In this document: piece by piece, positions 31,279 to 55,163 of the stretch
Position numbering within the stretch: the stretch's first letter is position 1
How the letters are laid out: each line of letters opens with the position of its first letter
Assembly (NCBI GenBank): GCA_014905635.1
Contig: JABVCE010000009.1
Coordinates: 248,001-312,000 of the forward strand
Direction: 5' to 3'
Origin: Scenedesmus sp. PABB004
Taxonomy: Eukaryota
Length of the DNA stretch: 64,000 bases
Position numbers and translations under genes: made by a program
Notes under the pieces: model-generated
What the model saw: only the letters and a program-made list of their open reading frames with translations
What the model was told of the DNA's origin: nothing
Database searches by the model: none

Positions 31279-31286
31279 AGAAACTC

Positions 31287-31931
31287 CTCACGTGCGGCCT
31301 TGGTCGCCATGGCGTCGCGGTCGTGCGCTCACAGGCAGCGGGCGCGCTGGGTTTCGCTGCGTTCGCTGAAGGCGTGGAGCTGGGCCAGGAACTGCTGCAG
31401 GCTGCAGGGCGGCCGGCTCATGGGGGCGGGCGGCAGCGGGGGGTGTGCCCGGCGCGCCCGCGGCACGCCGGGGCGGCCGCAGCGGCGCGTGTTACTCGCG
31501 GGCGGTTGCCGAGTGTGCGCCACATCGGCCGCGGCAGCGCCCCGCAGCGCCCCCGCGCCGCCGGCGTGGCCCCGCGAGCTGGGCGCGCACCGACGGCGGG
31601 CCCCTGGGGTAGCGCGGGGAGCTGATCCAGAGCTGCGGCAGCTCGTCGGCGGCGCTGGCGACTGCCAGCTGGCGGGTTTGGCCTGGCCGCCGTGTAGGCA
31701 GGCAGCAGACACCCCTCTGATGCAGCGGCTCGGGCAGCCCCTCGGGCATCGCGGGGGCGCGGGTGCTGCAGGCGGCCAGGGCGACGCCAGGCTGGCTGGC
31801 GAGAGCCAGGACCGCTGAGCACACTCTCTCTCTCGCGCGGCCCGCTCGCCCCTGGGCAGCTCAGGAGAGCTCCGGAGCCCGGGTCCGGGCTGCTGGTCCT
31901 GAGTTGCCAGCCCGCGCGCGCGCTCGTGCAA
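31287..31931 (-). repeat. Left arm of ~650 bp inverted repeat (copy of PEPCK upstream region + exon 1)
   Basis: Reverse complement of about 35624-36288. Near-identical translated ORFs appear on both arms (e.g. SLQQFLAQLHAFSERSETQRARCL). Confidence 0.95.
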
Positions 31932-32021
31932 GGGGCCGCCGCCCGCGCGCTCCGCGCGCCTCCCTCGAGCTTGCACGCCCAGCCCCGCTCGCGAGCGAGG
32001 AGCGATCGGTCCTGCCGGTGG

Positions 32022-33423
32022 TCAGGTCCAGGACTGCAGCGTGCGGTCGCGGTAGAAGCCGCCGGTCTTGAAGTCCTCTGGCGGCGTGAGCGCGAGCCAC
32101 ACCGGCGTGTCCGCGCCGGCGGCCGCTGACTGCGTGCCGCGCCAGCTGCTCATGTCGGTCGCGCAGTAGCCGGGACAGCATGCGTTGACCATGATGCCGC
32201 GCGGCGCCAGCTCCTTGGCGAGCAGCCGTGTGTAGCTGCTCTCCAGGGCCTTGCTGACCCCTGGCGCGGCCGCGGCCGCCGCGGCGGCAGCCGCGCGCGG
32301 GCGGCGTGGGGCGGGCGCTCAGCGGGCGCACGAGCGGCCCGGCCCGTGCGCTGCCGAGCAGCCGCGGCGCCGCGCCACGCACCGTACATGGAGTTGGGCC
32401 ACCCAGCCTCGGCGTGCCGCCCCGCTTGGACGTCTGCAACGAACGCGTTGCCCAGCTGCACGAGCTCGTCCACACCTGCGCGGCGCGCAGCGGGGGCGGT
32501 GGGCCGGCGCGGCGCGGCGCAGCGCCCGGCGCGTGCCAGGCCCCGCGCAGGCAGGACGCGCGCGCACCACCTGAAGGAGCGTCGAAGCGCGCGCGCAGCT
32601 GCTCCGAGGGGATGCCGCGCAGCAGGCCCGACCTGCGTGGCGCCGCGGCGGAGGCGCTGACGCGTCTGCCGGGCGCGGGCGCGCGCGGCGCGGCGCGCGC
32701 GGAGAGCCCCCCGCGCCCGGCCCTGCCGCGCACGAGCTGGACACGTTGACGATGCGGCCGCCCGGCGCGAGCAGCGGCGCGAGCGCCTCGCACGCCGCGC
32801 GCGTGCCGCCAAAGTTGGTGGCGATCGTCGCCGCGGCCTCGTCGGCGCCAAACGTGCTGCCCTTGAACGCGATGCCTGGTGAGCGGGGTGAGGGCGTGTG
32901 ATGGGGCGAGTGCGGGGGGCGCGCGCGTGGGGGTGCGTGTGGGAAGCGCGTGGGCGCGTGCGTGGGCGAGTGCGGGCGCGCGTGGGCCGGGGCGCCGCGT
33001 GCGCCCCCGCGCGCCCCGCGCGCGTTGTTCACCCGCGTTGTTCACCAGGACGTCCAGCCTCCCCCCCTTGGCGTCCGACAGCCACTCGGCAAACGCGGCG
33101 ACGCTCGCGGGGCTCGCGATGTCGAGCTGCCGATACTCGACCGCGAGCGCCGCGCCGCCGGCAGTGCTGCCGCCCGCGAGCTTCGCGAGCGCCGCGGCGC
33201 CGCGCTCCTCGCTGCGGCTGGTGAGGACCACGCTCAGCCCCGCCTCGGCCAGCAGGCGGGCGATCTCAAAGCCGATGCCCTTGTTCGCTGCGGCGGGCGG
33301 GGAGGGCGGTCGACGTTTGCCGGCACGCGCGGCTCGCTGCGGCGCGCCGCGCACGCGCAGCCGCCGCCGCGCACCGCCCGTGACCACCGCCACGGTGGAG
33401 GCGTCCCACCACTTGTCAGGCAT
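32022..33423 (-). CDS. Short-chain dehydrogenase/reductase, carbonyl reductase (CBR)-like
   Basis: VAVVTGANKGIG, LDVLVNNAGI, IVNVSS, MYGVSK (YxxxK), NACCPGYCATDMS, GADTPVWLAL. Confidence 0.92.
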
Positions 33424-33902
33424 GGCGCGTGGGCCCGCGCCGGCGAAGAGGCTGCGCGCGGCGCGGCAGCGGCAGCAGCGCTCGGCGGCGCTCGGCGCGG
33501 GGGACCCCCCGCCGGCGCTGCCCCGTGGGTGCGTGGGTGGGTGGGAGTTACTCACTTGCTCAGCAGGCCACGGGCGGCCAGCGGCGAGGGGTGGCGGCGC
33601 CGCGGCTGCGCGCCAGCAGCTGCTGCCGGCGCAGCGCTCGCCCGCGCGCGCGCCGCGGCCAGCATGCAGGGGGCCTCTTGGTCGGAGGGGCGATCGGGCG
33701 CGGGAGTGGGGTGGTGGAAATGCCGGGCGTGTGCCAGCCGCATGACCGCGTGACGACGACCGCGCGTGCCGGCTGCACGCGCGCGGCAAAGGCCGCACCG
33801 GCGGGAGCACACAGCCACGTCCGTCGCACGTCGCCCTGCATCACGTCCCTCCCCTCTGGTGTTGCGCGCCAGGCTAGACGCGCTGCCCTGCGGCCACGCG
33901 CG

Positions 33903-35380
33903 ATGGTGCAGCTCCCGCGCTCCCACGCGCCCGCCGCGGCGAGCGGCCTGCGCCAGGCGCTCCAGCCCGCGTCGCTGGCGGCGTGCGTGCGCCCGCGCTC
34001 GCGCCCGCGCGCGGTGGCAGCGGCGGCAGCAGCAGCGCCGGACGAGAGCGCCGCAGTCGTGGGCCGGCGGGCCGCGCTCGTCGGCGCCGCGCTGGCCGTG
34101 GGCCTGCGGGGCGCCGCGCCGGCTTGCGCGGTCCAGGGCCTCACCGCCGGCCGGCTGCCGGGTGCGGCGGCGTCGCACCGGCTGTGGTGGCCAGCGCGGA
34201 CCTCTGCCGGCCGCCGCCGGGCCGGTCGTGCGCAGCAGCTCCAGCGCGCCGACGTCCCGCCGCGTCCGCAGGCCTGACGCCGCCCCGCTGCTGCGGGCCC
34301 GTGCGCCGCCGTCCCACGTCCGCAGGCCTGACGCCCGAGCCGGACGCGGATGGCTTTTATCTGTACACGCGGCCCGAGGGCAAGAGCGGCGGGCACGGCG
34401 TGGGCTGGAGCGAGATGCCGCGCTACTCGTTCAAGGTGCGCTGCGCTGCGCTGCGCTGCGCTCAGCTCGCCTCAGCTCAGCCTCTGCGCCGCGGGGCTGC
34501 CGCCGCCGCCGCCGCCGCCGCTGCCGCCGTGCGCCGGCGTCGCACGCGCCGAGCGCCGCGCGCCGCGCGCAGGTGCCCGAGGGCTGGGAGGAGACGCCCG
34601 TGTCGATCGCGGACCTCGGGGGCACCGAGATTGACCTCCGCTTCGCGCGGCCGGACCAGGGCAACCTGCAGGTCGTCGTCGCGCCGGTGCTGCGCTTCGC
34701 CGACGTCGGCTTCAACGCAGGTGCGGGCGCGGCGGGCCGCTGAGCGCGCGGCGGGGCGCTGAGCGCGCGGCAGGGCGCCGACCGCCGCGCCACGCACCAC
34801 GCCGCGGTCGGCCTTGAACGCAGACGTGCGGATCGACCAGCTGAACCAGCCGGACGCCATCATCAGCGGCTTCGCCCCCGAGGTGCGCGCGCGGCGGGGC
34901 GCCGAGCGCGCGGCGCGGCGCCGAGCGCGCGGCGGGGCGCTCAACGCGCGGCGGGCGGGGGCCGACCGCCGCGCCGCGCGCCGCGCCGCGCCGCGCGCCG
35001 CGCCGCGCCGCGCCGCGCTGCAGCTGTTTGGCCGGCCGCTGAACGAGGGCGACGTGCTGGAGCAGCGCGAGACGGTCAAGGGCGGCGTCAAGTACTACGA
35101 GTGGTGCGACGGCCGCCGGGCCGGGGGCCGCCGGGCGGGCCCCGCGCGCGCGCCTGCGCGCGTGCTCGCCTGACGCGCCGACGCGGCGCCGCTGCCACGC
35201 GCGGCGCGCGTGCGCAGGGAGGTGAAGCCGCACAACCTGGTGTCCGCGACGGCGGTGGGCAACCGCGTGTTCATCATCAGCATCGCCGCCAAGTCGAGCC
35301 GCGTGTGGGCGCGCGCGGCCGACACGCTGCGCGCGATGCAGGCGTCGTTCTTCGTGCCCGCGCCGGGCGCGGCCGCGTGA
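33903..35380 (+). CDS. PPD6: PsbP-domain protein 6 (thylakoid lumen)
   Basis: Bipartite transit peptide with twin-Arg (GRRAAL...AxA); AGRLPGL..EPD, KSGGHGVGWS, PVSIADLGGTEIDLRF, VVVAPVLRFAD, ISGFAPE match PPD6. Confidence 0.85.
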
Positions 35381-35623
35381 GCCGGCGGCTCCAGGCCGGC
35401 TGCGTGCGAGCGGGGGCGGCGCAGGGCAGGGGGCGGGGAACGCCGCGAGGACGAGGGCCGTGAGAGGGGGAGCGGCCTCAGCAGCGCTGCTGTGCGTGCT
35501 GCCGGACGGGGCGGGCTGCTGCGCCAGTGCGAGCCGGCAGCGCCGCGCCCGCGCGTGGACGAGCGGGGCTGTGCGAGTGAGGGGCGCGGGCGGGGCGTAC
35601 GGAGCGTGCAGAGCGGGCGGGCT

Positions 35624-36288
35624 TTGCACAAGCGCGCGCGCGGGCTGGCAACTCAGGACCAGCAGCCTGGAGCTCTCCTGAGCTGCCCAGGGGCGAGCGG
35701 GCCGCGCGCGAAAGAGTGTGCGTGGTCAGCGGTCCTGGCTCTCGCCAGCCAGCCTGGCGTCGCCCTGGCCGCCTGCAGCACCCGCGCCCCCGCGATGCCC
35801 GAGGGGCTGCCCGAGCTGCTGCATCAGAGGGGTGTCTGCTGCCTGCCTGCGTGGCCAGGCCAAACCCGCCAGCTGGCGGCCAGGCCAAACCCGACAGCTG
35901 GCGGTCGCCGGCGCCGCCGACGAGCTGCCGCAGCTCTGGATCAGCTCCCCGCGCGCCCCCAGGGGCCCGCCGTCGGTGCGCGCCCAGCTCGCGGGGCCAC
36001 GCCGGCGGCGCGGGGGCGCTGCGGGGCGCTGCCGCGGGATGACGGCCGATGTGGCGCACACTCGGCAACCGCCCGCGAGTAACACGCGCCGCTGCGGCCG
36101 CCCCGGCGGCGCCGCGGGCGCGCCGGGCACACCCCCCGCCGCCGCCCGCCCCCATGAGCCGGCCGCCCTGCAGCCTGCAGCAGTTCCTGGCCCAGCTCCA
36201 CGCCTTCAGCGAACGCAGCGAAACCCAGCGCGCCCGCTGCCTGTGAGCGCACGACCGCGACGCCATGGCGACCAAGGCCGCACGTGAG
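35624..36288 (+). repeat. Right arm of ~650 bp inverted repeat; contains PEPCK upstream region, ATG and first splice donor
   Basis: Reverse complement of 31287-31931. Carries a 25-bp tandem duplication (about 35853-35903) absent from the left arm. Confidence 0.95.
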
Positions 36289-39200
36289 TTGGTTTAGGCC
36301 GCGCCGCGGGGCCGTGCGGGGCGTGGAAGGCGGCCGCCCTCTGACGAGGACGGATTGATTGGCCAGCGGCCCGCGCCGTGTGGGCCGCCCAGCGCGCGCC
36401 GTCGGGCGCGAGCGTTGCCACCCAAGCCCGCGAGGCGCCTCGCGCGCGCTCTGGCATCGCCGGGCGGCGCCGGCGGCGGCGCTGCTGCTGACCTTCTTCC
36501 GCCTTTTTTTTCTGCCGCCGCGCAGCCGTGAAGACGCCCGAGGTCGACACTGCGCTCATCGGCATGAAGAAGGCGGCCATGGCCCAGAAGGAGCAGATCA
36601 GCTCGGTGTGGGCCGCGCGCCGCCGCGCGCACGCGCCGCCCGCTGCTGCGCGCCGCCCGGCCCCGCGCCGCCGCCTGACCCTGCGCCGCCGCGCTCCCCC
36701 CGCCCGCCGACAGGCCGGCAAGCCCGTGTCCGCGATCATGGAGGCCTGCAAGGCCTTCAAGGAGAGCGGCTTCCGCCCGAAGATGGTCTACAGGCGCGCG
36801 CCGCACAGGGCGGGATGCTCGGCGGCGCGGCGCGGCGCGCGCGCGCGGCCCCCCGCGGCCCTGCTGCTGCTCACGTGCACGCGCGCCCCTGCCTCCCCGG
36901 CGCGCCCCTCTGCAGGAACCTGCCGCCCAGCCACCTGTATGAGAAGGTCCGCCCGGCGGCAGCAAAGTTGCCGGCCCCACGCGCGCGCGCGCGCGCCCCG
37001 CGCGCTGCTGCTGGCGGCCCCAACGCCTCAACGCCGCCGCCGCCGCCGCCGTGCCTGCCCCCCCCCCCCCAGGCGCTGCGGTACGAGCCCGGCACGCACA
37101 TCGTCAAGAGCGGCGCGCTCGCGACCTCCTCGGGTGCGGCCAGCCTCCAGCGCACGCGCGCGCGCGCGCGCCACGCCGCGCTGCGCGGCCCCTCCCCGCC
37201 GCGCCGCGCGCCGACCACCGCCCGCTGCGCGCGCGCCGCCGGCCGGCGCGCAGGCGCCAAGACGGGGCGCTGCCCGCGCGACAAGCGCGTCGTGCGCGAG
37301 CCGGGCACGGCGGGCGACATCTGGTGGGCGAGCAGCGGCAGCGGCAGCCCCAACTACGAGATGGACGAGCGCTCGTTCCTGCAAAACCGCGAGACCGCGG
37401 TCTCCTACCTCAACAGCCTGCACCACGTGTTTGTCTTTGACGGCTACGCCAACTGGGACCCCGACGCGCGCATCAAGGCGAGCGGCCACGCCACGCACGC
37501 GGCAGCGCTGAGCGCTCGTGGGGCTCCTCTGGGGCCGGGGGGCCGTGCGCGCCGCGCCGGCGCCGCGCGCGGCCGCCGACGACCAGGGGGCGACCGACGA
37601 CGTCGGCACTCACAGAGCTGACGCGCCGCCGCGCGCGCGCCCGTGCCGCGCCGCGGCCGCGCAGGTGCGCGTCGTGACTGAGCGCGCGTACCACGCGCTC
37701 TTCATGCACAACATGCTCATCCGGCCGACCGAGGAGGAGCTGGAGGAGTACGGGGAGCCAGACCTCATCATCTACAACGCCGGTGAGCGGCAGCGCGGCG
37801 CGGGGCTGCGCTGTGTGCTGTGCTGCGCTGCGCTGCGCTGCGCTGCGCTGTGCGGCACGCGCACGCGTGGTGGGTGTGTGGGCGTGGAGGGGGGAGGGCG
37901 GCCGGTGCAGGCCGCCGAGCGTCGCGCGCCGAACGCCGCCGAGCGCCGCGCGCCGCCCCTGCCGCCGCGCCGCCGCGCCGTCGTGCAGGCGCGTTCCCTG
38001 CCAACCGGTACGCCAACTACATGACCAGCCCCACGAGCGTCGACATCAGCCTGCGCAGCCGGGAGATGGTCATCCTGGGCACCCAGTACGCGGGCGAGAT
38101 GAAGAAGGGCGTCTTCAGGTGCGCCGGCGGGGAGGAGGAGGGGGGGGGGTCTCCGCTGCGGGGAGGCGGGCGGGGACGGGGCAGGCGGCGGCGGCGGCGG
38201 CCTGCGCGGGAGGTGTGTGTATTCTCCGCGGCGCGGAGAGAGTCAACACGCACAACAAGCAAACGCGCGCCACCGCCCGCCCGCCCGCCCGCCCCCGCAG
38301 CGTGATGCACTACCTCATGCCCAAGCGCGGCATCCTGTCGCTGCACAGCGGCTGCAACATGGGCGCGTCGGGCGACGTCACGCTCTTTTTCGGCCTCTCG
38401 GGTGCGCGCCGCGTTGCAGGGTCTATGAGGGCTTTTGTAGGAGGGTGCCGCGCGGCCGAGCGCGCGCGCGCCCGCAGCAGCGCCAGCGCGCCGCGCCGAC
38501 GGCCCCGCGCGGCGGCTGCCGCCGCCGCTGCGCGCCGCAGGCACGGGCAAGACGACGCTCTCGACCGACCCCCGCCGCCCGCTCATCGGCGACGACGAGC
38601 ACTGCTGGGGGCCCAAGGGCGTGTTCAACGTGCGGCGCGCCCGCGCGCCCGCCTCACGCCGCGGCCGCGCCGCGCCCGGCTGCTCGCCGCGCGCGCGGCC
38701 GCCGACCGCCGCTGAACGCTGCCGCCGCCGCCGCGCGCGCCGCGCGCGCCGCTGCAGATTGAGGGCGGGTGCTACGCCAAGTGCATTGGCCTCAAGGCCG
38801 CAAGCGAGCCGGAGATCTTCAAGGCCATCCGGTGCGCCGCGGCGCCGCGGCTGCTCGCCGCGCCGCGCCGCGCCGCGGGCGCCCGCCGCGCCGCGCCTCT
38901 CCTTCTCCCTCCCTCTCCCTCCCTCCCTCTCCCTCACACACAGCCCGCCGCGCGCGCCGCAGCTTTGGCAGCGTGCTGGAGAACGTCGTCGTCGACGAGG
39001 CGACGCGCGACGTCGACTACGGCAGCGCCGCGCTGACGGAGAACACGCGCGCCTCGTACCCGATCGACTACATCGACAACGCCCGCATCCCCTGCGTCGG
39101 CCCGCACCCGCGCAACGTCGTGCTCCTCTGCTGCGACGCCTTCGGGTGCGCGCCGCGTGCCGCGCGCGCGCGCTGCCGCGGCCGCCGCTGCCACCAGGAG

Positions 39201-40465
39201 CAGGCGACCGACCGCGCCCCGCCCGCGCGCGCCGCCGCCGCGGCCGCCCGCGCCGCAGCGTGCTGCCGCCGGTGAGCAAGCTGAGCCTGGAGCAGGTGAT
39301 GTACCACTTCATCAGCGGCTACACCTCCAAGGTCGCGGGTGCGCGGTTGACCGGCCGTTACGGCTGACCGTCACGTTGTTTGACCGTCGCTCTCGCCCGC
39401 CACGCTGCGCGCGCGGCTTCGCCGGGGAGCGAGCAGCGGCTGCGCGCCGCCCGTCCCCCGCCCGCCTGCCCGCCCGCCCTGTCATGTCACGCCCGCCGTG
39501 CAACGCCCTGCCGCTCACCAGGCACCGAGATGGGCGTGACGGAGCCGGAGGCCACGTTCAGCGCGTGCTACGGCGGCGCCTTCCTGATGTGGCACCCCAT
39601 GAAGTACGCGGCGATGCTGGCCGAGAAGATGCGCGAGCACGGCACCAAGGCGCGCCGCGCCCCGCGCCCCGCCCGCCGCGCCGCCGCCCGCCCGCCCGCC
39701 GGGCCCGCGCGCCGCCCCGCCGCGCTCGCGCCGCGCCGGTCGTGACGCGCGGCTCCCCGCCGCGCCGCGCAGGGCTGGCTGGTCAACACGGGCTGGACGG
39801 GCGGGCGGTATGGCGTGGGGTCGCGCATCAGCCTCAAGTACACGCGCGCGATCATCGACGCCATCCACGCCGGCGCGCTCGACACCGTGGAGTGCGCGGA
39901 GATGCCCCTCTTTGGCCTGCAGGTGGGCGCGTGCGCGCGCGTGCAGGGGCCGCGGGGCGGGGCAGCGCGCGGCGGCGCCGCGCGGCGCGGCGCAGCGCGA
40001 GAGCGAGCCCCGCGCCTGACGCCGCCGCCGCGTGGCGCGGCGCGCGCGCAGGTGCCGACGGCCTGCCCCGGCGTGCCGAGCGTGCTGCTCCAGCCCGCGC
40101 TGCAGTGGGCGGACGGCCCCGACTTCAACGCGACACTCACGCAGCTCGCGAGCCTCTTTGTGGGCAGCTTCAGCACCTACCTCGAGGACGCCGCCCTGCA
40201 CGTGGGCGCCGACATGGCGGAGCGCATCCTCTCGGGCGGCCCCGACCTGGCCGCGGTCGCGGAGAGCGAGGCCGCGATCGCCGCGGCCGAGGCGGCCGGC
40301 GCGCTGCCGCACCACGCTGAGCCGCACGCCGCGGCGCCCGGCCCCGACGCCGGCGACGGCGACAGCGACGTCCCGGGCGACGAGGAGCCGGGCTGCAAGG
40401 CCTGCGCCGCGCGGCGCGCGGCCGAGCCCGCCGCAGCGGCGGCGGCGCCGGCGGGCAACGCGTGA
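36265..40465 (+). CDS. PCK1: Phosphoenolpyruvate carboxykinase (ATP), about 15 exons
   Basis: Exon 1 MATKAA(P) 36265-36283 splices in frame to 36526. Motifs [62 protein letters not shown]. Confidence 0.95.
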
Positions 40466-42704: not shown

Positions 42705-42718
42705 ACCACGCTCTTGCA

Positions 42719-43211
42719 GGGCGGGCGGCGCGCTCCTGCGCGCGCGGCGCTGCTGCGCTGCCGGCAGCGGCGGCGGCCGGAGGCAGCCAGCCGCGCGGCC
42801 GAGCGCTGGATGGGGCGCGGTGAGGAGCGTGGCGGGGTGACCAGGGAGCGGGGCGAGGCGGGAGCTGGGGGCCCGGCTGCAGCCCCACACCCGCGGCGGC
42901 CTGGTTGGCGCCACCGAGGCACCGGCGCAGCGGGCGGGCCCCGGCTCCTGCCGGGCGCAGGCAAGGCTGCCCCAGGTCCCCGCGAGCTCTTTCAGAGTCT
43001 CCCGCGACCGAAATCGGGGCAGGGCTGCGAGTCGGGCGGCCGCTGACTTTTCGGCGCCCGAACGACCGCGCGCGCCGACGCGACGCCGCCTGGCGCCAGC
43101 GCGCGTCTGGCGTCAGGCATGCAGGGCTGCGATCACGGGGACTTTACACAGGCCGCCGCCGCACCGGCAGCGGCGCCCGCGCTCGCTCGGTTCGCTCGCA
43201 CAGGGTCACCT
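42719..43211. repeat. Direct copy (~490 bp) of 48319-48821 (MetRS stop, 3' flank and Kunitz-gene upstream region)
   Basis: Colinear with the second copy at an offset of about 5600 nt with few substitutions; includes TTACA (43144-43148) and GGGTCACCT. Confidence 0.95.
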
Positions 43212-43212
43212 T

Positions 43213-43487
43213 AAAACTGTGGGCGCGCCGGGGCCGGCGGCGCGCGGGGCCCGCGCGTCCCGGGGAGCCCGCACCGCGCCCGCCCACACTCGCAGAACCC
43301 TTCTGCCCTGCCAGCCCAAAAAATGCTCGAAACCGCCCCCTTGTCAGCCAGGGGGCCAGCCAGGGCCGCACACGGGCGTCTGTCGGCGGCTCAGCGGCCA
43401 GGGCGGTCGGCAACGCCGAGCAGCAGCAGGCGGCAGCAGCATGGCGCTCACGTCGCGCCCGGGCGACGCGGGCGCGCTCAAGGTCGC
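43213..43487 (+). repeat. Inverted copy (~275 bp) of MetRS upstream region plus first ~16 codons (54774-55047)
   Basis: Reverse complement match; ATG at 43441 reads [16 protein letters not shown], identical to the MetRS N-terminus. Confidence 0.95.
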
Positions 43488-43493
43488 GCCAGC

Positions 43494-46198
43494 TCACGCA
43501 GGCAGGTGCAGGCTGCGCCCGAGCGGCAGCAGGTGCACGACGAGCTGCTTGTCGCGCCGCCGCGGCAGCAGCCTCGGCGGCTGGTCGTGCCGGTGCGCGT
43601 GGGCGTCGTGGTGATGGTGCGCGCCGGGCTCCGCCTCCTCCTGCGCCGCCGACTGCTCGTCCAGCGCCGCGCAGCGCACCACCTGCGCGCGGGGGGCGGC
43701 ACAGTGTGTGAGCGGCAGCCGCCGCGCAGAGCCGGCGGCGCGCCGCAGCATGCCTCGGCACGCACGTGCACGGCCTGCAGGGCGCCGTGCGGCGAGCGCT
43801 CCAGCTCAAACGCGGGCACGTCACACGCGTCGAGCACGAGGCGCCCGAGCAGCGGCGCCGCGGCGACGACGGCCGCGGCAAAGCCCGGTCCGAGCGGCGC
43901 GGCGGCGTGGCGCAGCGCGAGCGAGCGCAGGCTCGCGCCCGCGCCGGCGCGCAGCAGCTCCAGCAGCGCCGCCTCGCTGAAGGACGGCCGCCAGCACGCG
44001 GCGCGGCCGGCGCCGTCGGCGGTACAGCAGTCCTCGAGCCGCAGGTGCTGCAGCGCGCACGCGCAGGCGGCCAGCGCGGCGAGCAGGCCGTCGCTGAGCC
44101 CACGTGCTCGGACGAGGCACAGGCTGGCGAGCGTGGTCCAGGGCGACGACGGGGCGGCGCGCGGCAGGCCGAGCAGGGCGAGCAGCTGCGCGTCTGTCGT
44201 GGGCATGGGCGGGCCGTCCAGCTGGAGCGTCGACATGCGCCAGCGGTGCCGCGGCGGCGGGCCTGGCGCCATGGCCGCGTCAAAGGGCCCCACACACTGC
44301 TGCAGCTGCAGGCAGACGAGCTTGGGGCAGCCGCCAAGCACCGCCGCGACGCCTGCGCGGGCAGCAGCGGCCGCGCGATGGGCGGGCGAGGGCGCCCGAG
44401 CGCGGAGCGGGAGCGCCGCACGCACGCGGCCCTCGCCGGCGGCGGCCAGCGCACCGTGACTGCTGACGGCGCACAGCGTCAGGCAGAGGCGTGCCAGGTG
44501 GGGGCAGCTGGCGGCCAGGCAGCGCAGGGCTCCGTCGTCCACGCCGGCGCCCACGCCTGCCGTGAGGCTGTTCAGCAGCGGCGCGCGCCGCAGCAGCACG
44601 CACACGCCCGCGGCAGACCAGCCCCAGCCCACAGCAAGCTGCACGACGCACGGAAGCCGCGGCTGCGGCGGCTGGTCAGTCACGTGCTGCTGCTGCTCCG
44701 CCTGCTGCTCCTCAGCTGCCAGCCGCAGCAGCGCGGCCTCCAGCTTTGCCGTGCCGCCTGCGGCGCGAGGCGTGCGGCGAGCGTGCGACCACACAGACCT
44801 GCCATCAGCGCGGCGCGGGGCGCGCGCGCGCGGGCGCGCGCTTGCCGCACCGTCCGCGGCCAGCGTGACGCAGCCGGCCGCTCCCAGCCGCCGCAGCGCG
44901 CTGCAGCTTGTCAGCAGAGCGGCCAGGCAGGCGGCGCTCAGGGCCGTGGCATCAGACAGGTCCAGCTCCACCAGCCGCGCCAGTGCCGCCGACCAGGCCG
45001 ACGGCGCCGCGCTGGCGCTGCTGCCGGCCGTGCAGGCGCCGTGTGGGGTGAGCGCGGCGTCTGCGTTGATCCTGCGCGCCACGAGCACTGCGGCGACAGA
45101 CGGCGGCGGCAGGTCGGCGGTTGCCTGCGGCCGCGCGCATGCGCGCGCACGCGGGGGCGGCGCCGCGCCGCCGCACCTTCCAGCCGCGGCAGGCGGCACA
45201 GCGCGGCTCGGAACTCCGAAAACGGCCCGCCCCCGCCCCCGTCCGGGGGGCCCTGCAGCCCCGCGCAGCCCGACACGTCCAGCACGCGCAGCTGCGGCCC
45301 GATGCTGCCCCCACGGCTGCAGAACAGCGCGGGACGAGGGCCCGCCGGGCGCTGCGCCGCGCCGCGCTCGGGTGCCAGCGCCGCAAACGTCGCGCCCGCC
45401 GCGGCCGTGCCCGCCAGCCCCAGGCTGGCCAGGCCGCTGCTGCAGCGCCGCAGCAGGCACATCATGCTCTGCTGGCTCAGGGCCGCCAGCCCCGACAGAT
45501 CCAGGTGGCGGATCCCCGCCACAAAGCCCTCGGGCGCGTCCAGCGCCAGAAACTCGGCGTCACCCGCCGCTAGGGGTCCCTGGAGCGCGAGCGCCGACTC
45601 CCCCCGCACCAGCGGCAGCTGCAGCAGGCGCGACGCGGGCGCCTGGCCGGGCAGCAGGCCCAGGCCGAGCGCCGCGTCCGCGCCGGCGCCGGGCGCCAGC
45701 CGCGGCGGCCAGGGGCTCGCGAGCGCCGCGACGCTGGCGGGCGGCGGCGGCAGGTGCAGCAGCAGCGCCTGCGCCTGCGCCTGCGGCGGCGCCTGCGGCG
45801 CCGCTGCCTGCGCCTGATCCCCGCCAGCGGGCGTCTGCTTGAGCGCCCGCATGACCTGACCCAGGCGCGTGGCGGTGTCGCGCGTGCAGAGGTGCTCCAA
45901 AAAGCGCTGCAGCTGCTGCAGGCCGTGCCACGACGCGCAGCTCGCCAGCACGTCGGCGACGGGGTTGCAGCGCTGCGCGCCGGCGCCCGCCGGCGCCCGC
46001 GGCAGCGGCGGCGCCGCTGCGCCGCCCCACTGGTTGGGCTGGCGGTCGGGGCCCGCAGGCGGCAGGTGGCCGCGCACCAGCGCGCCGCCGGCGCCGCCGC
46101 AGAGCATGGCCGTCGCGGCGCCGTCGGTGATCAGGCATCCCGTCTCCCGGAGTTGCGCCCCGGCCGGCACAAAGAAGCCGCTGAAGTCGACGAGAGGC

Positions 46199-46236
<38 letters not shown>

Positions 46237-46553
46237 GTGGTGCTGCTGGTTGTGGTGCTGCCGCACCGCTGCCGCGCGCTGCACGGCGTCCAGCAGCAGC
46301 TGGTCCCGCCACCCGCCCGCGGCGCCCGCGTGCAGGCTGCTGCGCGCCGCCGCGCTGCGTGCCGCCAGCGAGCCTGCCTCGGGGCAGCGCCTGCTGCCGC
46401 TGGCGCGGCCGGGGCTGCGCGTGGCGGCGCACCGAGCAGCAGCAGCGCGCAGCAGCGCCGGCAGCAGCACGCCAGCGCGAGCTGGTCCGGCAGCTCGAGC
46501 CGGGACGCCACCGCCAGAAGCAGGACGTCCGGCAGATCGCCGGCCAGCGCCAT
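43494..46553 (-). CDS. F-box / leucine-rich-repeat (RNI-like) protein
   Basis: MALAGDLPDVLLLAVASRLELPDQLALACCCRRC (F-box); LRRs IRHLDLSGL, LRVLDVSGC, LVELDLSDA, LRRLGAAGC, LQHLRLEDC. Confidence 0.8.
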
Positions 46554-46740
46554 GCTGCGGGCGGCCGAGCAGCGCCGGCGGCGGTGGAGCGGCGGTCGCC
46601 GCTGTCGCTGCTGCCCTCGCGTGCGGCGCGGCGGCCTGGTGTTGCTGTTGTTGCAACAGCTGGCGCACACCACAACTTCTGACGGCCGCCGCAGCCGCCG
46701 CGGCACAGCCGCACGCTCAACCGCAAAGCCCTGAACGCGG

Positions 46741-48252
46741 TCACGGCACTGCCGCGGCGAGCAGGCCGGCCGCCGCCGCGGCGAGCGCGGCGCCGGCGCC
46801 CGGCGCGCGCGCGCGCTGCCCGACGCCGCCGGCGCGGGCTCGGGCGCGCCGCCCGCGGCCAGCACGACGTCCGGCTCGGCCTGCACCGGCACCGGCACCA
46901 GCGAGAAGCCGGGCGGAGGCGGCGGCGGCAGCGCCGGTGCGCCGGCGGCGCCGGTGCCCGCGCACGCCGCGTCGCACACGGCCTCGCTGCCAAAGTTGTT
47001 GCCGTTGCCGCCGCATCCGCCCCAGGTGAACGCCACGCAGCGCGCCGCCTCGGCGCTCCACGCCCAGCGCCGGATGGAGGCGCGGCAGGGCCCGGCCACC
47101 GGCGGCAGGCGGCAGAGCGCGAGGCGCGCGGGCAGCGCGGCGTAGCCACCCGCCGCGCTGTCGTCAAGTTGGGGCGCGCTGGCGGGGTCGCCGCCGGCCG
47201 TCGCGTTGCCGGCGGCGCGGTAGGTGGCGTTGCCGGCGCCGCCGGTGACGTTGACCGGAGACTCGGGGCTTGGCGGCGGCGCAGGCGAGGTGCCCGGCTC
47301 CTCGGCGGGCGGCGCAGGGCTGGCGGGGCTCGGCGACGGCGCAGGCGAGCTGCCCGGCTCGTCGACCGGCGGCGCTGGGCTGGCGGGGCTCGGCGACGGC
47401 GACGGTGGCTTCGGGGGGCTTGGCGGCGGCGGGGGCGATGGCAGCGGAGGCGGCGGCGGGGGCGACGGCGGCGGCGGGGGCGGCGGCGGGGGTGGGGGCG
47501 GGGGCGCCCCCGCCGGCGGCGGGGGAGACGCGCCCTGCAGGAGGTGCCGCGCGACGGCGTGGTGGCCGCCGCGCGCGCCGGAGCAGCCGAGCGGCGCCGC
47601 TCCGCCGCCCCAGGCGCGCAGGTAGGGCTCCAGCTCAGCCTCGGGGCTGCTCCGGCTCTCGGTGTCGGCCTCTGGGAGCGTGGCGTACTCCACGGCACGG
47701 AGCGGCACCTGTGCGCCACCCCCTGCGCAGGCGCGGCGAGGCGCGGCGGACGGGTCAAACCGCTCCACGCGCGTGGCTCGACCGGCTGCCGCGCTGCCGC
47801 GCTGCCGCGCTGCCGCGCTGCCGCGCACCGCGCTCGCCGGCCTGCAGCAGGAAGACGTAGCGCAGCGCGGCGTGGGCCTCCGGCGCCGCGGCGTGCCCCG
47901 CGCACGTCAGAAGGTCAACGCCGACGACCGCCACGGCCCCCGCGAGCGGGGGCGGGCCCGCGCCGCCCGGCGTCAGCGCCCAGGCGCACTCGACGTCCAG
48001 CGTGGCCGACGCGCCCGTCAGCCCGGCGCCGGCGGCGGCACCGCGGCCGCGCGCCGCGGCCGCCAGGCTGCGCAGCGCGCCCGGCGGCGCGTCGCACGCC
48101 TCGATGCGAGCGCTGACGAGCAGCAGGGCCGGCTCTGGGCTCTCCGCGGTGCGCGCCGGGCTCAGCAGCGCGCCGAGCACGAGCAGGACGGCGAGGGCCA
48201 GCACAGCGAGGTGCCACGGCGCGCCGCCGCGCCGCGCCGGCTGGCCCGCCAT
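46741..48252 (-). CDS. Secreted Pro/Ser-rich (HRGP-like) protein with BPTI/Kunitz domain, probably GPI-anchored
   Basis: Signal peptide WHLAVLALAVLLVLGALL; SPPPP/SPSP repeats; CRLPPVAGPCRASIRRWAW...CVAFTWGGCGGNGNNFGSEAVCDAAC (six Kunitz Cys). The hydrophobic tail ending at 46741 is out of frame by 2 nt as assembled. Confidence 0.8.
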
Positions 48253-48318
48253 GCTGGCGCCTGACGCGCGTGCGTGTGAGGCTAACAAGTCCAGGGCTCC
48301 GGGAATCACGCGCGGGCG

Positions 48319-48821
48319 GGGCGGGCGGCGCGCTCCTGCGCGCGCGGCGCTGCTGCGCTGCCGGCAGCGGCGGCGGCCGGAGGCAGCCAGCCGCGCGGCC
48401 GAGCGCTGGCTGGGGCGCGGCGAGGAGCGTGGCGGGGTGACCAGGGAGCGGGGCGAGGCGGGAGCTGGGGCCCGGCTGCAGCCCCACACCCGCGGCGGCC
48501 TGGTTGGCGCCACCGAGGCACCGGCGCAGCGGGCGGGCCCGCGGCTCCTGGCGGGCGCAGGCAAGGCTGCCCCAGGTCCCCGCGAGCTCTTTCAGAGTCT
48601 CCCGCGACCGAAATCGTGGCAGGGCTGCGAGTCGTGCGGCCGCTGACTTTTCGGCGCCCGAACGAACGCGCGCGCCGGCGCGACGCCGCCTGGCGCCAGC
48701 GCGCGCCTGGCGTCAGGCGGGCACGGCTGCGATCACGGGGACTTTACACAGGCCGCCGCCGCACGGGCAGCGGCGCCCGCGCTCGCTCGCTTTCGCTGGC
48801 GCAGCCGCGGTGGGGTCACCT
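48319..48821. repeat. MetRS 3' flank / Kunitz upstream region, duplicated at 42719-43211
   Basis: Direct sequence match; TGTAA signal on the minus strand at 48744-48748. Confidence 0.95.
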
Positions 48822-51800
48822 GATGCTCGCGCCCGCCACGCTCGCGACGCGCACGGGCCCCGCGCTCGTGGTCAGCGGCGCGCCCTTGTAGCACGCGACC
48901 AGCTCGGCGTTTGTGGCCAGGTCGGGCTGCACGCCCTCAAAGACCTTCTTCTTGGGGTTGAGCTGCTCGTCCGGCTCGCCGGCAAAGCCCGGCACCGTCA
49001 CGCGCTCGCCGACCGGCGCGCCCGCCGGTGGCTCCAGCAGCTCCACCTGCAGCGGCGCGCGGGCGGGCTCAGCGCGGCGCGCGCGGGCGGGGCTGCGTGC
49101 CGCGCCGCGCGCCGCGCGCGCCGCCGCGCGGGCTGCGTCGGCGGCGCGCACCTTGCCGCTCGTGGGGCACGTGGCCGCGAGCACCATCGCCTGGCTCACG
49201 ATGCCCCGCATACCCGCGGGCTTGAGGTTGGCGACCACCACGACGCGCCGCTGCTGCATCTCCGCCTCGGGGATGTGCTTGACCAGCCCGCTCACCACGG
49301 TGCGCGGGCCGGAGGCCTCGCCGAGGTCAATCTCCTCCACTGAGCCGTCAGGTGGGCGGCGGGCGGCGGGCGGCGGGCGGCGGGCGGCGGGCGGCGGGCG
49401 GCGGGCGGCGGGCGGCGGGCGGCGGGCGGCGGGCGGCGGGCGGCGGGCGGCGGGCGGCGGGCGGCGGGCGGCGGGCGGCGGGCGGCGGGCGGCGGGCGGC
49501 GGGCGGCGGGCGGCGGGCGGCGGGGCGGGCGGGCGGGCGGGCGGCGGCGGCGGGCGGCGGGCGGCGGGCGGCGGGCGGCGGGCGGCGGGCGGCGGCGGCG
49601 GGCGGCGGGCGGCGGGCGGCGGGCGGCGGGCGGCGGGCGCGGCGGGCGGGGGCGGCGGTGCAGTGCGTTAGCGACGCGGGCCGGCGTGGCGCGGCGCGGC
49701 GCGGCACGGCCGGCGGCGCGCAGGGCTCGGCGTGCGGGGGGGGGGGGGGGGGGGGCTGCCCGCCCGGCGTGCGGCGCGCGGGGCTGCGCGCGCGCGTGCA
49801 GGGGCTGCGCACCGTAGAGGCTGTCCGCGTCCGGGTGGCGCCAGGCTTTGGTGATCAGGCCGACGCGGAGGTCCAGGCGGCTCACGTCCACCGGCCGCTC
49901 CGGCTCCTTGGCGCCGCGCGCCGCCGCCGCCGCCCTTGGCCTTGGCGCCGCCGGGCGCGCCGCCGCCTTCGCGGCGCCGCCCTTGCCGCCCGGCTTGGCG
50001 CCCGGCGCCGCGCCGCCGGCCGCCGCCGCGGCCGCCCGCGGCGTCGTCGCCTGGCTGCCGCCAAGCGCGCGCGCAGCGCCGCGACGACGTCGTCTTTGAT
50101 CTCACTGATGAGCGGCGCGGGCGTGCCGATCGCGTGCCCCGGCGCCACGAGGCCCTGCGGCGCCGCCGCGCCGGCGACGAGCTCGTCGCTCAGCGCCGCC
50201 GCGGCCGGCGGCAGCGCGAGCTGCTCCAGGATCTTGTCGGTCAGCGTGGGCATGTAGGGGCTGACCAGCGCAGCGAGCAGCCGCACGACGCCCACGCCTG
50301 CGCCCGCCGGGGGCGTGCCGCGCGCGGCGCGGAGGCAGCGAGATGACATCAGCGCGGCGGGTGTGGCGGCGGGTGCGGCGGGTGCGGCACGGTGGCAGCG
50401 GCGGCGCGGCGGCAGCGGCGCGTACCCGCGGCGACGAGCGTCGCGGCGTGCTCCGGGTCGGTCTTGACGACCTTGAAGGGCTCCGTGTCGGTGAAAAACT
50501 TGTTGCCGTCGGCGCTGACCGCCATGGCGAGCCGGATGCCGTCGCGCAGCTTCATCTGCGCGTGCGACGCGCGCGGCACGCGGCGGCGGCGCGTGTGGGC
50601 GGGTGTGGGCGGGCGGCGCGCCGGGCGCGGCGCGGCAGCGGCGCTGCAACTGCGCGCGTGCGAGCGGTCGCGGGCGCGGGCGCGGGCGCCGTGCCTTCTC
50701 CATGGCGGCGATGTACTCGGCCACCTTGGCCGACACCGACGCGCCGAGCTCCGCCGCCGCGTCGGCGCCCTTGGCCGTCGGCGCGGGCACGGCGCCGCCG
50801 AAGAACTTGACCACAAACACCAGCGCGCTGCGCGGGCGCAACGCGGCGGCGGCGGTGCGGCCCGGCGGGTGGCGCGTTCGGCGGCCGCGAACGCGCGCGG
50901 GAGCGCGGGCGGGCGCAGCAGGGGCGCGGCGGGCGGGCGGGCGAGCGCCGGCGCAGCGCCCCGGACGCCTCCCTCGCTGCACGCGCCCCAGGGACGCGGC
51001 CGCCGCGCCCCGGACGCCTCCCTCGCTGCAGGCGCCCAGGGACGAGGCTGCCGCGCTGCACGCGCCCCAGGGAACGAGGCCGCCGCGCCGCCGCCGCGCC
51101 GCCGCCGCGCCGCCGCGCCGCTGCGCCGCCGCGCGCACCGGTTGATGAAGTTGCCGAGGTTCTTCAGCAGCTCGTTGTTGCAGCGCGCCTGCGGCGGGCG
51201 CGCGGCGGCGCCCCACGGTCGCCGGCGCCCCCGGCACCGGCGCGCCGTGCGGCGCGCGCGCATGCTTCTGTGGCTGCGCGCGCGCTCGCGCCCAACACGA
51301 CACACAGCACGCGCAGCGCGCGCGCGCGCGCGCGGGCCGCGCCTGCAGGTCGGCCCACTTGAAGTCGGTGTCCTGCGCCTCGGGGCGGTTTGCGAGCAGG
51401 TAGTACCGCCACACCTCCACCGGCAGCCCCGCCTCCATCGCGTCCGTGCCAAACACGCCTGCGCGCCGCGCGCCGCCGCGGCGCGGCGGGCTCGCAAAGC
51501 GGCCGGCGTGCCCACGCCTGCCCGCCGCCCGCCGCGCGGCCGCGCCCTGCCCCTCCCCTGCCCCCCTCCCCGCGCCGGCCGCCGCGCGTTCGCTCCGCGC
51601 CCTCCGTCGCCGCGCGCCGCCGCGCGCACCGGTGCCACGGCTCTTGGAGAACTTCCCGCCCTCGTAGTTGAGATACTCGGTCACGCTGATGTTCCGCATC
51701 ATTGTCCAGGGCCCGCCGCTGCCGATGAGGCTCGCCGGGAAAATGACGGTGTGGAAGGGCACGTTGTCCTTGCCCATGAACTGCACCAGCTCCACGTCGC

Positions 51801-54800
51801 CCGGCGACTGCCACCTGCGCCGCGGCGCCGGGCGGGCGTGGGCGGGCGTGGCCGGGCGCGGGAGGGCGGGAGAGCGGGAGAGAACGGAGCGCGGGCGGGC
51901 GGGGAGGGTGGGCGGGTGGGAGGGCGGCCGCGCGGCGCGCGGCGGCGCGCACCACTGGCGCCAGTGGGGCGTGTAGTTGGCGGTGATGCTGATGTAACCG
52001 ACCGGGGCGTCAAACCAGACGTAGAAGACCTGCCGGGCGGCGCACGGGCGGCGGCGGCAGAGTTGCGGCGGGGGCGGCGGCGCAAGGGGGGCAGAGGCGG
52101 AGGCGTGCGGCGCGGGGCGGGCCGGGGCGCGGCCGGCGCCCTGCGCGGCGCCGCCTGTCGCATGAGGCGGGGCCGCACCTTGTCCCGGTAGCCCTCGAGC
52201 GGCACGGGGATGCCCCACTTGAGGTCGCGCGTGATGCAGCGCTGCTTCAGGCCGTCGCGCATCCACGCGCCCGTGGTCTGCGCGCCGCCGGCGCGGCGGC
52301 GGCGGGCGCGGGCGTCGCGGCGGTCGGCCGCGCGAGCCGGGCGCGCGGCGGGCAACGCGCCCCGGCGCCGTGCGCCGCGCACGCCGTGCGCCGCGCCGCG
52401 GTGCGCGCCTGCACGCAGTTTGCGCTCCACCCGCCCAGCTGGCTGGTAGAGTCGATGTAGTGCTGCAGGCGGTCGCTGAGCTTGGGCAGGTCCAGGAAGA
52501 GGTGCTTGGTGGAGCGGATGACCGGCTTGGTCCCCGTGAGCTTGCAGCGCGGGTTGATGAGCTCCGTCGGGTTCATCAGCCCGCCGCACTTGTCGCACTG
52601 GTCGCCGCGCGCGTCCTGCGGGCGGCCGGCCGCCGCGCGCCGCGCCGCGCGCAGGGCTGAGTTCGGGTCGACCCCGCCGCCGGGCGGCCGCGGCGGCGGC
52701 GGCGGCGCCACCGCGGCAGGGCGCGGCGCGCCGAGTGCCCACGGGCGCCGCACCTCGTAGCCGCACTTGGGGCAGGTGCCGCTGACAAAGCGGTCGGCCA
52801 GGAACTTGCCCGCCGCCTCGCTGTACAGCTGCTCCATGGTCTGGCCGAGGGGAGGAGGCGGCGGGGGCGCACGCGGCCGCGGCGGCGGCGGTCACGGCGG
52901 TGTGTGCGGCAGGCCCATCCTTCTAGCCCGGCCCGCGCCGGCGCTCGCGCGCGCGCGTGTGGGCCTGCTGCGCACCTGCTCGCTGATGTTGCCGGCGTCC
53001 CAGAGGTCCTTGAAGAGCGACTGGCAGATCTCGGTCTGCGCCCTGCGCGCGCGCGCGCGGCGGAGGCGCCCGGCCCGGCGGCCGCGCTCGGCGCGCGCGG
53101 CGCGCACGCGCGCAGGCTGCGCGGCGGCGGCCGCGCGGGCGGCCGGCCGGCCGCGCGCGCGGGCCGCGCGCGCACCGCGTGGGCGTGCGGCCAAACTTGT
53201 CGAAGCTGCAGCCAAACCACTCATACACGGCGCGGTGCACGGCGTGGTACTTGTCGCAGATCTCGGCGCAGCTCAGGCCCTCCTCCAGCGCCTGCGCCCC
53301 GCCGGCGCGGCGCGGCGCGGCGGCGGGGCGGGGCGGGGCGGGCGCGCCGCGTGAGCCCGCCGGCGCCGACCGCGCGCGCGCGCGCCCGCCCCTCCGCCCG
53401 CTGCCTGGCCGCGCCGCCCGTCACCCCCTCGGCCCGCTGCCATGACGGCCGCGGCCACCGCCGGGCCGCCGCGCCGCCGGCGACGCGCCTTGGTCTCGGT
53501 GGCGGTGCCGTACTCGTCTGTGCCGCAGATGAAGATCGCGTTGTGCCCGCGCGCGCGCGCGTAGCGCGCGTAGCAGTCGGCCGAGAGCACGCAGCCGATG
53601 ATGTTGCCGAGGTGGGGCACGTTGTTCACGTACGGCAGCGCGCTCGTGACCTGGGGAAAGGCGCCGCGGGCGGCGTGGCGTGGGCGCACGCGCCGCCGCG
53701 GCGGCGGCCGGCGCGCCGCGAGGAGGAGCTGCCGGCCGGCGCGTGCGGCCGCGCCGCGCGCGTGCGGCCGCGCGCGCGCGCACCAGGATGTTGCGCGCGC
53801 CCTTCTTGGGCAGCTTGGGCAGGCGCGCCGCGTGCGCCGCGGCGTCGGCCTCAAACACAGACAGCAGCGCGCCCGCCGGCGCGCCGGCGAGGAACTGCGC
53901 GGCGAGGCGCCGACGCGCGGCGCACCGCGGCGGGCGCGGGCGCGCCGCGTGAGCGGGGCCGGCGCGCGGCACGGCGGCGGTCATCGCGTGTGTGGGCGCG
54001 CCGCACCGTGGCCGTGCCCTGCTGCACCGCCGCCTCGCCCGCGAGCCGCGCCATGAAGCCCGCCACGCCCGGCGGCAGCGCCTCGCCCTTCTCCTGCAGC
54101 GGCAGGAGCGTGCAGTACACGGCGACCTGCGGCGGCGCGCGGGCGCGGCGCGCTCGGCGGCGGGGCGGGCACGGCGGCGTGAGCGCGGCCCCTCTGCCCG
54201 CGCCGCCGCTCACGTCTGCCAGCGTCACGCCGCTGCCGGCCACGAGGCCGCCGTGCTTGGCGAGCTGCGCGTCAAGCGCCGCGAGCGCGCCCGTCGCCGC
54301 GTCGCCGCCCTCGAGCGCCGCGGCGCGCAGGCTGCCGGCCTCCCACTGCAGCCACTGGTCCACGCACGCGGCCTGCTGCGGCGACGCCGGCGCGAGCGCC
54401 GAGCCTGCGCGCGGGGCCGGCGGGCGGCGGCGGCGCCGTCGGCGCGCGCCGGACCGTTTCCCTGCGGCTCGCAGCCGCTGCGCCGCCGGCTGCGGAGGCC
54501 CCCGGGCGCCGGCCGGCCGGCGGCAGCCCGCGCAGCAGCGGCGCGGGCGGCAGCGGCCGCCGCCCCGCGCGCGCCGGCGGCCCGGGCGCGCCGCTGCGCC
54601 GCGGTTCCGATGGCGGGGCGTGGTACCCACCTGCCAGGCAGGCGGCCGCGGCGTTGGGCTCGGTCAGCAGCGCGCCGTCCGGCGTGGCCAGCGCCAGTGA
54701 TGGCCGCCCGAACGCGTCCGCCGGCGCGCCGGGCGTGAGCGTCAGCTGTACGCCAGCAGCCGCCGCCGCGATGGCGACCTTGAGCGCGCCCGCGTCGCCC

Positions 54801-54820
54801 GGGCGCGACGTGAGCGCCAT
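48816..54820 (-). CDS. MARS: Cytosolic methionyl-tRNA synthetase with N-terminal GST-like and C-terminal EMAPII/tRNA-binding domains, about 18 exons
   Basis: [18 protein letters not shown] (HIGH), GTDEYG, CPKC/CDKC zinc knuckles, [48 protein letters not shown]. Confidence 0.96.
49354..49655. repeat. (GGGCGGC)n heptamer tandem array inside a MetRS intron
   Basis: About 300 bp of near-perfect GGGCGGC units within intron ~49341-49812. Confidence 0.95.
50957..51090. repeat. Intronic minisatellite (~49-bp unit, ~2.5 copies) in MetRS
   Basis: cgccccggacgcctccctcgctgca(c/g)gcgcc(c)cagggacg repeated. Confidence 0.8.
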
Positions 54821-55163
54821 GCTGCTGCCGCCCGCTGCTGCTCGGCGGTGCCGACCGCCCTGGCCGCTGAGCCGCCGACAGACGCCCGTGCGCGGTCCTG
54901 GCTGGCCCCCTGGCTGACAAGGGGGCGGTTTCGAGCATTTTGTGGGCTGGCAGGGCAGAAGGGTTCTGCGAGTGTGGGCGGGCGCGGCGCGGGCTCCCCG
55001 GGGCGCGCGGGCCAGCGCGCCGCTGGCTCCGGCGCGCCCACAGTTTTGGAAGTCCGTCCAACGCCCGCCCCGGTCCGTCGGCGCCCCACACACGCCCCGC
55101 CGCTGCCTCCCCGGCCGGGGCGCACGCGGCCACCGGTCCGCGGCGGGCTCGCCGGGCACCGGC

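Follow-up and report, generated by a model that had tools for sequence, protein, structure and literature searches.

Introduction

Inverted duplications of the kind analysed here are known from Drosophila, where, according to Ranz et al. (2007; PMC1885836), 17 of 29 inversions carry them and are traced to staggered breaks. The duplications there have a median length of 321 bp (46 bp-1.9 kb), and 12 inversions are duplicated on one side. Selection against gene-breaking breakpoints is described by McBroome et al. (2020; PMC7487137), and in Chlamydomonas reinhardtii, itself a green alga, Dualen and Crypton elements are known sources of such changes (Lopez-Cortegano et al. 2023; PMC9977147). Our literature search, mostly outside subscription papers, found no report of such scars in green algae. 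Polymerase theta and MMBIR repair also make templated insertions.

Here we analyse a 64-kb stretch of the genome of Scenedesmus sp. PABB004 (the window; C77:248001-312000 in an assembly of 39.97 Mb and 80 contigs). The PPD4 protein encoded in the window groups with Tetradesmus, and the host is thus a scenedesmacean green alga. The original prediction held that two genes in the window with no evident shared sequence, PEPCK and MetRS, each have an inverted copy of their 5' end nearby, left by a local process that breaks just inside the 5' ends of genes. We find that the scars are real and recurrent, that the mechanism itself is a known one, and that they are notable for their density and small scale. 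We think it likely, though well short of certain, that the pairs are breakpoint duplications of gene-scale rearrangements, mostly one- or two-gene inversions, filtered by selection.

On the features tested, the pairs would belong to the inversions described by Ranz et al. (2007). As in that study and in Guillen and Ruiz (2012) (PMC1885836, PMC3355041), single-copy DNA stands back to front at both ends of a block, the copies include partial, dead gene copies, their sizes fall in the same range, they are often one-sided, and no transposon is involved. Unlike the Drosophila type, the PABB004 blocks measure 2.7-11.3 kb (one or two genes) and occur at 3-5 per Mb in an alga of 77-79% GC; direct pairs and a multi-junction case are also present, and the outgroup loci disagree over the flip.

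Results

The PEPCK 5' end is duplicated around two genes

Duplicated pairs were identified by self-BLAST of the window and alignment, and copy number by a genome search that scores best candidates only. The parts of the genome that were read are 77-79% GC with short introns, many of which, in the window, seem to begin with GC rather than GT (e.g., at 52408 and in the 30283-30400 region). Intergenic gaps span 183-883 nt among nine hand-annotated genes (window 29-61 kb), whose ends are good to a few nucleotides. An Rfam search of window positions 30000-56000 gave no match.

In the first pair, 31287-31991 (x') is an inverted copy of 35560-36288 (x), the 5' end of PEPCK. The alignment has 690 columns with 25 substitutions and 13 indels; its firm core (31287-31931) has 14 substitutions in 632 columns, and the 60-nt tail to 31991 is homologous to x but eroded, with an extension score matched by 1 of 300 random stretches. 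The duplicated DNA holds about 700 nt of PEPCK upstream sequence, a 19-nt first exon, predicted from frame and splice signals only, and the donor GTGAG. One end of x' lies 49 nt past the stop of gene A (31237), and its other end lies 30 nt from the stop of an SDR gene. Exactly two copies of this sequence exist in the PABB004 genome. The features are, in order:

31235-31278, plus strand: gene A stop, followed by a TGTAA at 31274 of poly(A)-signal type; junction 31286/31287 predicted to be new
31287-31991, minus strand: x', inverted PEPCK upstream copy, exon 1 at 31310-31292; now the SDR 3' flank
32022-33423, minus strand: short-chain dehydrogenase (SDR) gene, PF00106, E 7e-12; within the presumed inverted block
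33903-35380, plus strand: PsbP-domain protein PPD4 gene, PF01789; within the presumed inverted block
35560-36288, plus strand: x, the copy running on into PEPCK; ATG 36265, exon 1 to 36283, donor 36284-36288
36265-40465, plus strand: PEPCK (ATP) gene, PF01293

Gene A gives a weak CRAL-TRIO match that falls under the cut-off (PF00650, E 0.085). The stretch around its TGTAA (31268-31286) loosely resembles the continuation of x in PEPCK intron 1 (36289-36302), a resemblance for which an anchored extension test gave no support.

The ancestral order in this first case may have been A(+) PPD4(-) SDR(+) x PEPCK(+). The SDR-PPD4 block would then have flipped, with x' staying as the SDR 3' flank and x as the PEPCK promoter. 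Gene order elsewhere bears on this reading in both directions. Among 56 PPD4 loci, PEPCK adjoins PPD4 at two, L130 and L139, both from green algae distant from PABB004. At L130 the two genes lie head to head on opposite strands, the predicted ancestral strands, with no SDR; at L139 they are in tandem, as in the window today, and at a further locus, L133, PPD4 has the window's orientation relative to its upstream gene. The outgroup loci thus disagree, and L139 and L133 speak against a flip and for an inserted copy. A PPD4 tree placed none of the three loci inside Scenedesmaceae or near PABB004. A vWA-type gene (window 25-28 kb) adjoins PPD4 at L133. In Tetradesmus, PPD4 (OEZ86_005455, OEZ85_003712) and MetRS (OEZ86_005446, OEZ85_003704) lie on one chromosome, 8-11 gene models apart.

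We also consulted a related strain in sequencing run X1, 1-7% different from PABB004 and represented by metagenome contigs at 2-5x coverage (8 of 744 contigs inspected). Short contigs of this strain lie over both predicted-ancestral junctions of the first case, one spanning SDR and the x' tail (31944-32197) and one spanning x and the PEPCK intron (36214-36378), but the strain may share the rearrangements. The x' core (31269-31902) and 48387-49000 are almost uncovered, and at such coverage holes prove nothing. Collectively, we somewhat favour an inversion over a plain insertion for the first case.

Both ends of the MetRS gene are duplicated

In the second pair, 43213-43487 (U') is an inverted copy of 54774-55047 (U), the 5' end of MetRS, again by self-BLAST and alignment (274 columns, 10 substitutions, 1 indel). 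It comprises 228 nt of upstream DNA and 47 coding nt of MetRS, a gene whose start and end agree with the Tetradesmus MetRS protein. U' ends 6 nt past the stop of gene L (43494), and the PABB004 genome holds exactly two copies. A further pair that had escaped the original prediction lies beside it: Y1 (42707-43211) and Y2 (48307-48821) form a direct pair, with 15 substitutions in 484 columns, and contain the MetRS stop codon and a TGTAA signal. Y1 meets U' across a single base (43212), and 42707-43487 thereby joins the 3' end of MetRS to its 5' end. The present order is X Y1 U' L K Y2 MetRS U Z:

41103-42704, minus strand: gene X, with a TPR-like stretch, conserved in green algae; ATG 2-14 nt from Y1
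42707-43211, minus strand: Y1, with MetRS last codon, stop and 3' flank, TGTAA 43148-43144; X upstream region
43213-43487, plus strand: U', inverted MetRS 5' copy; ATG 43441
43494-46553, minus strand: gene L, no Pfam match; leucine-rich by eye; single copy
46741-48252, minus strand: gene K, secreted Kunitz-domain protein, PF00014, E 7e-19
48307-48821, minus strand: Y2, continuous with the MetRS ORF; stop 48818-48816, TGTAA 70 nt downstream
48816-54820, minus strand: cytosolic methionyl-tRNA synthetase (MetRS) gene, PF09334
54774-55047, minus strand: U, running on into the MetRS ORF (ATG 54820); gene Z (ATG 55164) lies head-to-head with it

The Y copies keep different flanks, as Y1 abuts the start of X and Y2 runs on into the MetRS ORF. 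We infer that Y was the former MetRS-X interval and that the ancestor read X(-) Y MetRS(-) U. No Tetradesmus homologue of gene X was named among the 17 of 142 matches looked up. The genes now between the Y copies have lost their own flanks: gene L keeps 6 nt, and gene K retains just 54-66 nt of its own upstream DNA before Y2. No second copy of either gene was found in the PABB004 genome, and 43488-48320 has only low-complexity matches to the rest of it. The long target-site duplication (TSD) of a Dualen LINE was rejected as the source of Y1/Y2, given that host genes L and K stand between the copies and that Pfam and own-genome searches gave no repeat-family match. Within MetRS, the frame seems to lose one base in a short T run at ~50055-50065, which is probably due to faulty assembly; the match to Tetradesmus stops at 50083, and the intron at 49351-49660 holds a ~300-nt microsatellite of a 7-nt GC unit.

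Two routes could lead to this arrangement. If the ancestor read X Y MetRS U K L Z, all the orientations would result from a pair of overlapping inversions, the first with its staggered break at Y and the second at U, but these would have to reuse the Y1-U' junction to within 1 nt. Alternatively, starting from X Y MetRS U Z, a multi-break event would have inserted U', L and K where a staggered break spanned Y. We read the second case as a complex event and prefer neither two inversions nor one multi-break event.

Inverted pairs recur across the genome

Self-comparison was extended to 1,004 kb of the PABB004 genome, made up of the window and, on five contigs, another 940 kb; the blocks measured 140-264 kb, which hides any pair spaced more widely than its block. 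The comparison yielded 33 rows with at most two copies: five inverted local pairs, five direct local pieces and 23 others. Of the latter, five are palindromes, and the rest are tandem repeats lying side by side, repeats within a gene, or paralogue matches confined to coding sequence. Six of these 23 were read as sequence or translation, and the rest were classed by position, length and identity. The inverted pairs are:

C77, window 31287-31991 and 35560-36288: PEPCK 5' end
C77, window 43213-43487 and 54774-55047: MetRS 5' end
C77:358915-359720 and 362443-363268: BTF3 bidirectional promoter, 1.1% substitutions
C4:632211-632663 and 636193-636641: last 59 codons and 3' flank of a gene; encloses an amino-acid transporter
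C1:1066310-1066777 and 1071467-1071952: last 39 codons and 3' flank of a gene; encloses a CCCH protein

They measure 275-836 bp, stand 2.7-11.3 kb apart and differ by 1.1-4.8% substitutions; four of the five have one end only in an ORF. In all five the spacing stays below 12 kb, in blocks that would have revealed pairs up to 140-264 kb apart. Five pairs amount to 5.0 per Mb (95% interval 1.6-11.6), or ~200 genome-wide, and without the window 3.2 per Mb (0.7-9.3), or ~130 genome-wide; two of the five blocks (C5 and C13; 340 kb) hold no inverted pair. The five direct pieces comprise Y, described above, and four others:

C5:485091/486963 (L086:5091-5358 and 6963-7230): exon 1 and upstream DNA; the copy lies 21 nt behind the stop of an HD-domain gene
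C4:616092/618621 (L059:6092-6961 and 8621-9487): 870 nt, bidirectional promoter and first exons
C1:1038405, with its copy in the region C1:1043517-1044859 (L032:3517-4859): 873-nt internal piece of a Pro/Cys-rich gene 4.4 kb away
The pair flanking that C1 fragment: 210-nt direct duplication that includes a stop codon

The source gene of the C5 pair, which we take to be sterol-methyltransferase-like, gave no Pfam match with its two short exons; by eye, we noticed an inverted match of 17/18 nt near L086:5550 and 7270. The C4:616092 copy sits behind the same gene's own stop, and a different ATG follows each copy. Two dispersed families were also seen, one of 1-2 kb sequences, 80-87% identical, with at least nine copies in C4:531000-685000, and a smaller, ankyrin-like (by eye) one of 1-2 kb sequences, also 80-87% identical, on C5 near L085-L086.

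Each of the five inverted pairs, like the direct pair on C5, has two copies in the whole genome, and the duplicated DNA of the inverted pairs is otherwise single-copy and flanks a unique block. The longest TSD-like match at the ends of the window copies is 2-3 nt and the longest terminal-inverted-repeat-like (TIR-like) match 2-4 nt. Across 18 intervals tested, we found one 9-nt GC-only and one 6-nt TSD-like match, and TIR-like matches of at most 5 nt. No motif shared between the PEPCK and MetRS pairs was found. A DNA transposon or captured-gene element was accordingly rejected, there being no TIR, TSD or multiple copies.

These results bear out part of the original prediction: both inverted 5'-end pairs exist, each in two copies genome-wide; the copies have diverged, at 2-4% of sites plus indels; they lack a TSD or transposon; and the process recurs, with three further inverted pairs in the 940 kb outside the window. 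The predicted spacing of 5-12 kb fails for the PEPCK pair, whose arms are 3.6 kb apart, and the count of two cases within 25 kb holds in that both are real and falls short by the direct pair Y1/Y2.

The BTF3 pair splits a head-to-head promoter

The BTF3 pair duplicates a whole head-to-head promoter. Its left copy runs on into BTF3 (NAC domain, PF01849) and ends after 22-23 codons of gene P; its right copy runs on into gene P and ends after 20 codons of BTF3. Between the copies lie BTF3 and an epimerase-family gene, and the two stubs stand 184 and 61 nt behind stops. We treat P as a gene on account of its multi-exon Cys/His frame; a sequence-database search with its exon 1 gave no usable match. 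As neither copy keeps both flanks, the source locus has been split, which calls for an inversion rather than an inserted copy. P and BTF3 were once head to head, and a two-gene block was inverted with the promoter duplicated.

The second junction of this pair carries a 19-nt templated filler (L023:414-442, C77:362414-362442), an exact copy of L023:536-554, whose source lies 93 nt inside; some 10 nt resembling L023:559-568 follow. Only 0.9% of 1,500 random ends were as good (P 0.009 per end), and a filler above chance is present at 1 of 34 ends tested. It resembles a polymerase-theta-type templated joining. The filler, and the resemblance of U' and the C1 fragment to longer templated copies, recall polymerase theta or MMBIR; unlike their products, 33 of 34 ends have no filler above chance.

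How such pairs would arise can be outlined. At one site, two nicks, or breaks on two chromatids, would be separated by ~270-870 nt. Fill-in, with the ends then joined to a second break at a distance of 3-11 kb, would place the inter-nick DNA on either side of the flipped block, in inverted orientation. Only events that leave genes whole would be kept by selection, such that the remaining ones cover a short intergenic region and reach a few codons into an adjacent gene, and the second break would be tolerated mostly behind a stop codon. That the duplicates are two-copy, local and truncated and hold gene ends is shown by our data, as is inversion for the BTF3 pair; an inversion in the first case, the break chemistry and the role of selection are what we deduce.

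The strongest competitor, which we nevertheless consider unlikely, is templated insertion without inversion, in which repair of a break in a 3' region would copy in 0.3-0.9 kb of DNA lying a few kb off, through template switching and in either orientation. On structure alone an inserted copy fits four of the five inverted pairs as well as an inversion does. The five direct pieces, among them C5:485091/486963, C4:616092/618621 and the internal fragment at C1:1043732, are not explained by a single inversion and count in favour of such copying, both ends of U' are new junctions whichever model holds, and PPD4 at L139 and L133 has today's orientation. Yet templated insertion cannot yield the BTF3 pair or Y, in which each copy has a different flank, and gene-blind copying would take 62-78% of pieces inside ORF spans, when 1 of the 10 pieces inspected is internal.

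Gene ends are enriched at the duplicated pieces

A start or stop codon is present in all five inverted pairs (starts in three, stops in two), and the five direct pieces inspected hold starts in two cases, stops in two and an internal coding fragment in one. For a random piece of 270-870 nt the chance of including a start or stop is 14-38%, which gives five of five a P of about 0.0008 under uniform placement, and the three of three outside the window a P of 0.018. The search for repeat pairs over 1,004 kb thus agrees with the predicted over-representation of gene ends. It does not uphold breaks specifically just inside 5' ends, as two of the five inverted pairs copy 3' ends.

A duplicated piece lying wholly inside a gene destroys that gene, and such inversions would be purged. 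Pieces not wholly inside a gene hold a start or stop 62-100% of the time for 270-870 nt duplications, and among gene-sparing events five of five has a P of 0.42, a null that rests on the hand annotation of nine genes. Hence, although endpoints are not random with respect to gene structure, short intergenic gaps and a gene-sparing filter would produce the end bias without targeting, and the enrichment argues for selection-filtered breakpoints. As in McBroome et al. (2020; PMC7487137), the breakpoints that survive leave genes intact, duplications save genes together with their control regions, and apparent intragenic breaks lie near gene ends; unlike that work, our argument comes from nine hand-annotated genes, not from population or frequency data.

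The six start-codon stubs are all turned towards the stop of another gene. A stub turned towards a start would take the place of that gene's promoter and add an upstream ATG, which may explain the orientation. The orientation could also reflect breaks targeted to the promoters or terminators of active genes (transcription-linked nicks, gene loops), in which case the end bias would be mutational, and stubs may be kept as 3' UTR antisense to the 5' end of a neighbour. We regard this as improbable. It would account for the joining of two ends of one gene, the MetRS stop and MetRS promoter, in the second case, and with six of six start stubs facing a stop, the 3' UTR of the facing gene would read antisense; the first TGTAA of gene L indeed lies 345 nt downstream, past U'. 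However, selection by itself predicts the end bias as well as the orientation, the TGTAA of gene A comes before the stub, and the 3' region of gene L is no more stably folded than shuffled sequence (z 0.64) and has no Rfam match.

Divergence of the coding stubs

Over 784 nt of coding stubs we count 5 substitutions and 2 indels; changing at half the non-coding rate, they should have 12.3 and 7.0 (total 7 versus 19.3, P 0.001). This is less than a dead copy should show, as the antisense reading would have it, but the deficit shrinks when changes are counted as clustered events (4 versus 8.3, P 0.09; inverted pairs 2 versus 6.2, P 0.055). Low stub divergence would fit an allelic origin, gene conversion or selection on the stubs. 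At the 10 substitution sites between U and U', the X1 contig, for which 10 of its 13 differences are listed, has the U base at three and no listed difference from U' at seven, so that changes fall on both copies.

Resemblance to alleles raises the question of an assembly artefact, with two haplotypes merged or reads chimeric, which we judge very improbable. Ten Scenedesmaceae strains are heterozygous diploids (PMC13315243), the differences between copies are mainly non-coding, as between alleles, and of a level like that between PABB004 and X1 (1-7%), and the apparent single-base MetRS frameshift near 50060 hints at assembly errors. A haplotype switch, though, makes no novel junctions, when every pair needs two, with different gene stubs; one junction has a templated filler, copies differ by 5-13 nt indels, and eight own-genome searches showed no second haplotig.

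Discussion

Breakpoint duplication with selection remains our preferred account. The least probable alternative is a since-lost transposon, leaving a long Dualen-type TSD or a Crypton-mediated inversion: Chlamydomonas Dualen direct duplications have a median of 900 bp and Crypton inversions occur at CAYCG sites (PMC9977147), and our pairs resemble these in coming from a green alga, with duplications of several hundred bp and local inversions, yet no element stands between or at the copies, host genes do, 43488-48320 has low-complexity matches only, and no target motif is shared (CAYCG at 1 of 36 ends; TIR-like matches of at most 5 nt).

A broader scenario, which we hold to be a long shot, extends the targeting idea. 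Gene-scale shuffling whose breaks hit promoters and terminators, in some cases bringing both ends of a single gene together and possibly occurring between homologous chromosomes, such that copies start as alleles, could have left a hundred or more copies of promoters and gene ends; those that put housekeeping 5' ends antisense in a neighbour's 3' UTR, as all six start stubs would, might be kept as putative antisense regulatory links.

Under breakpoint duplication with selection, neighbours swap promoters and 3' ends, as with gene K, which now lies behind the MetRS 3' flank. Should this count prove right, a single compact algal genome would carry ~130-200 dated, polarised scars of one- or two-gene inversions, and the origin of micro-inversions, and the parts of mutation and selection in their position, would become testable with published Scenedesmaceae genomes.
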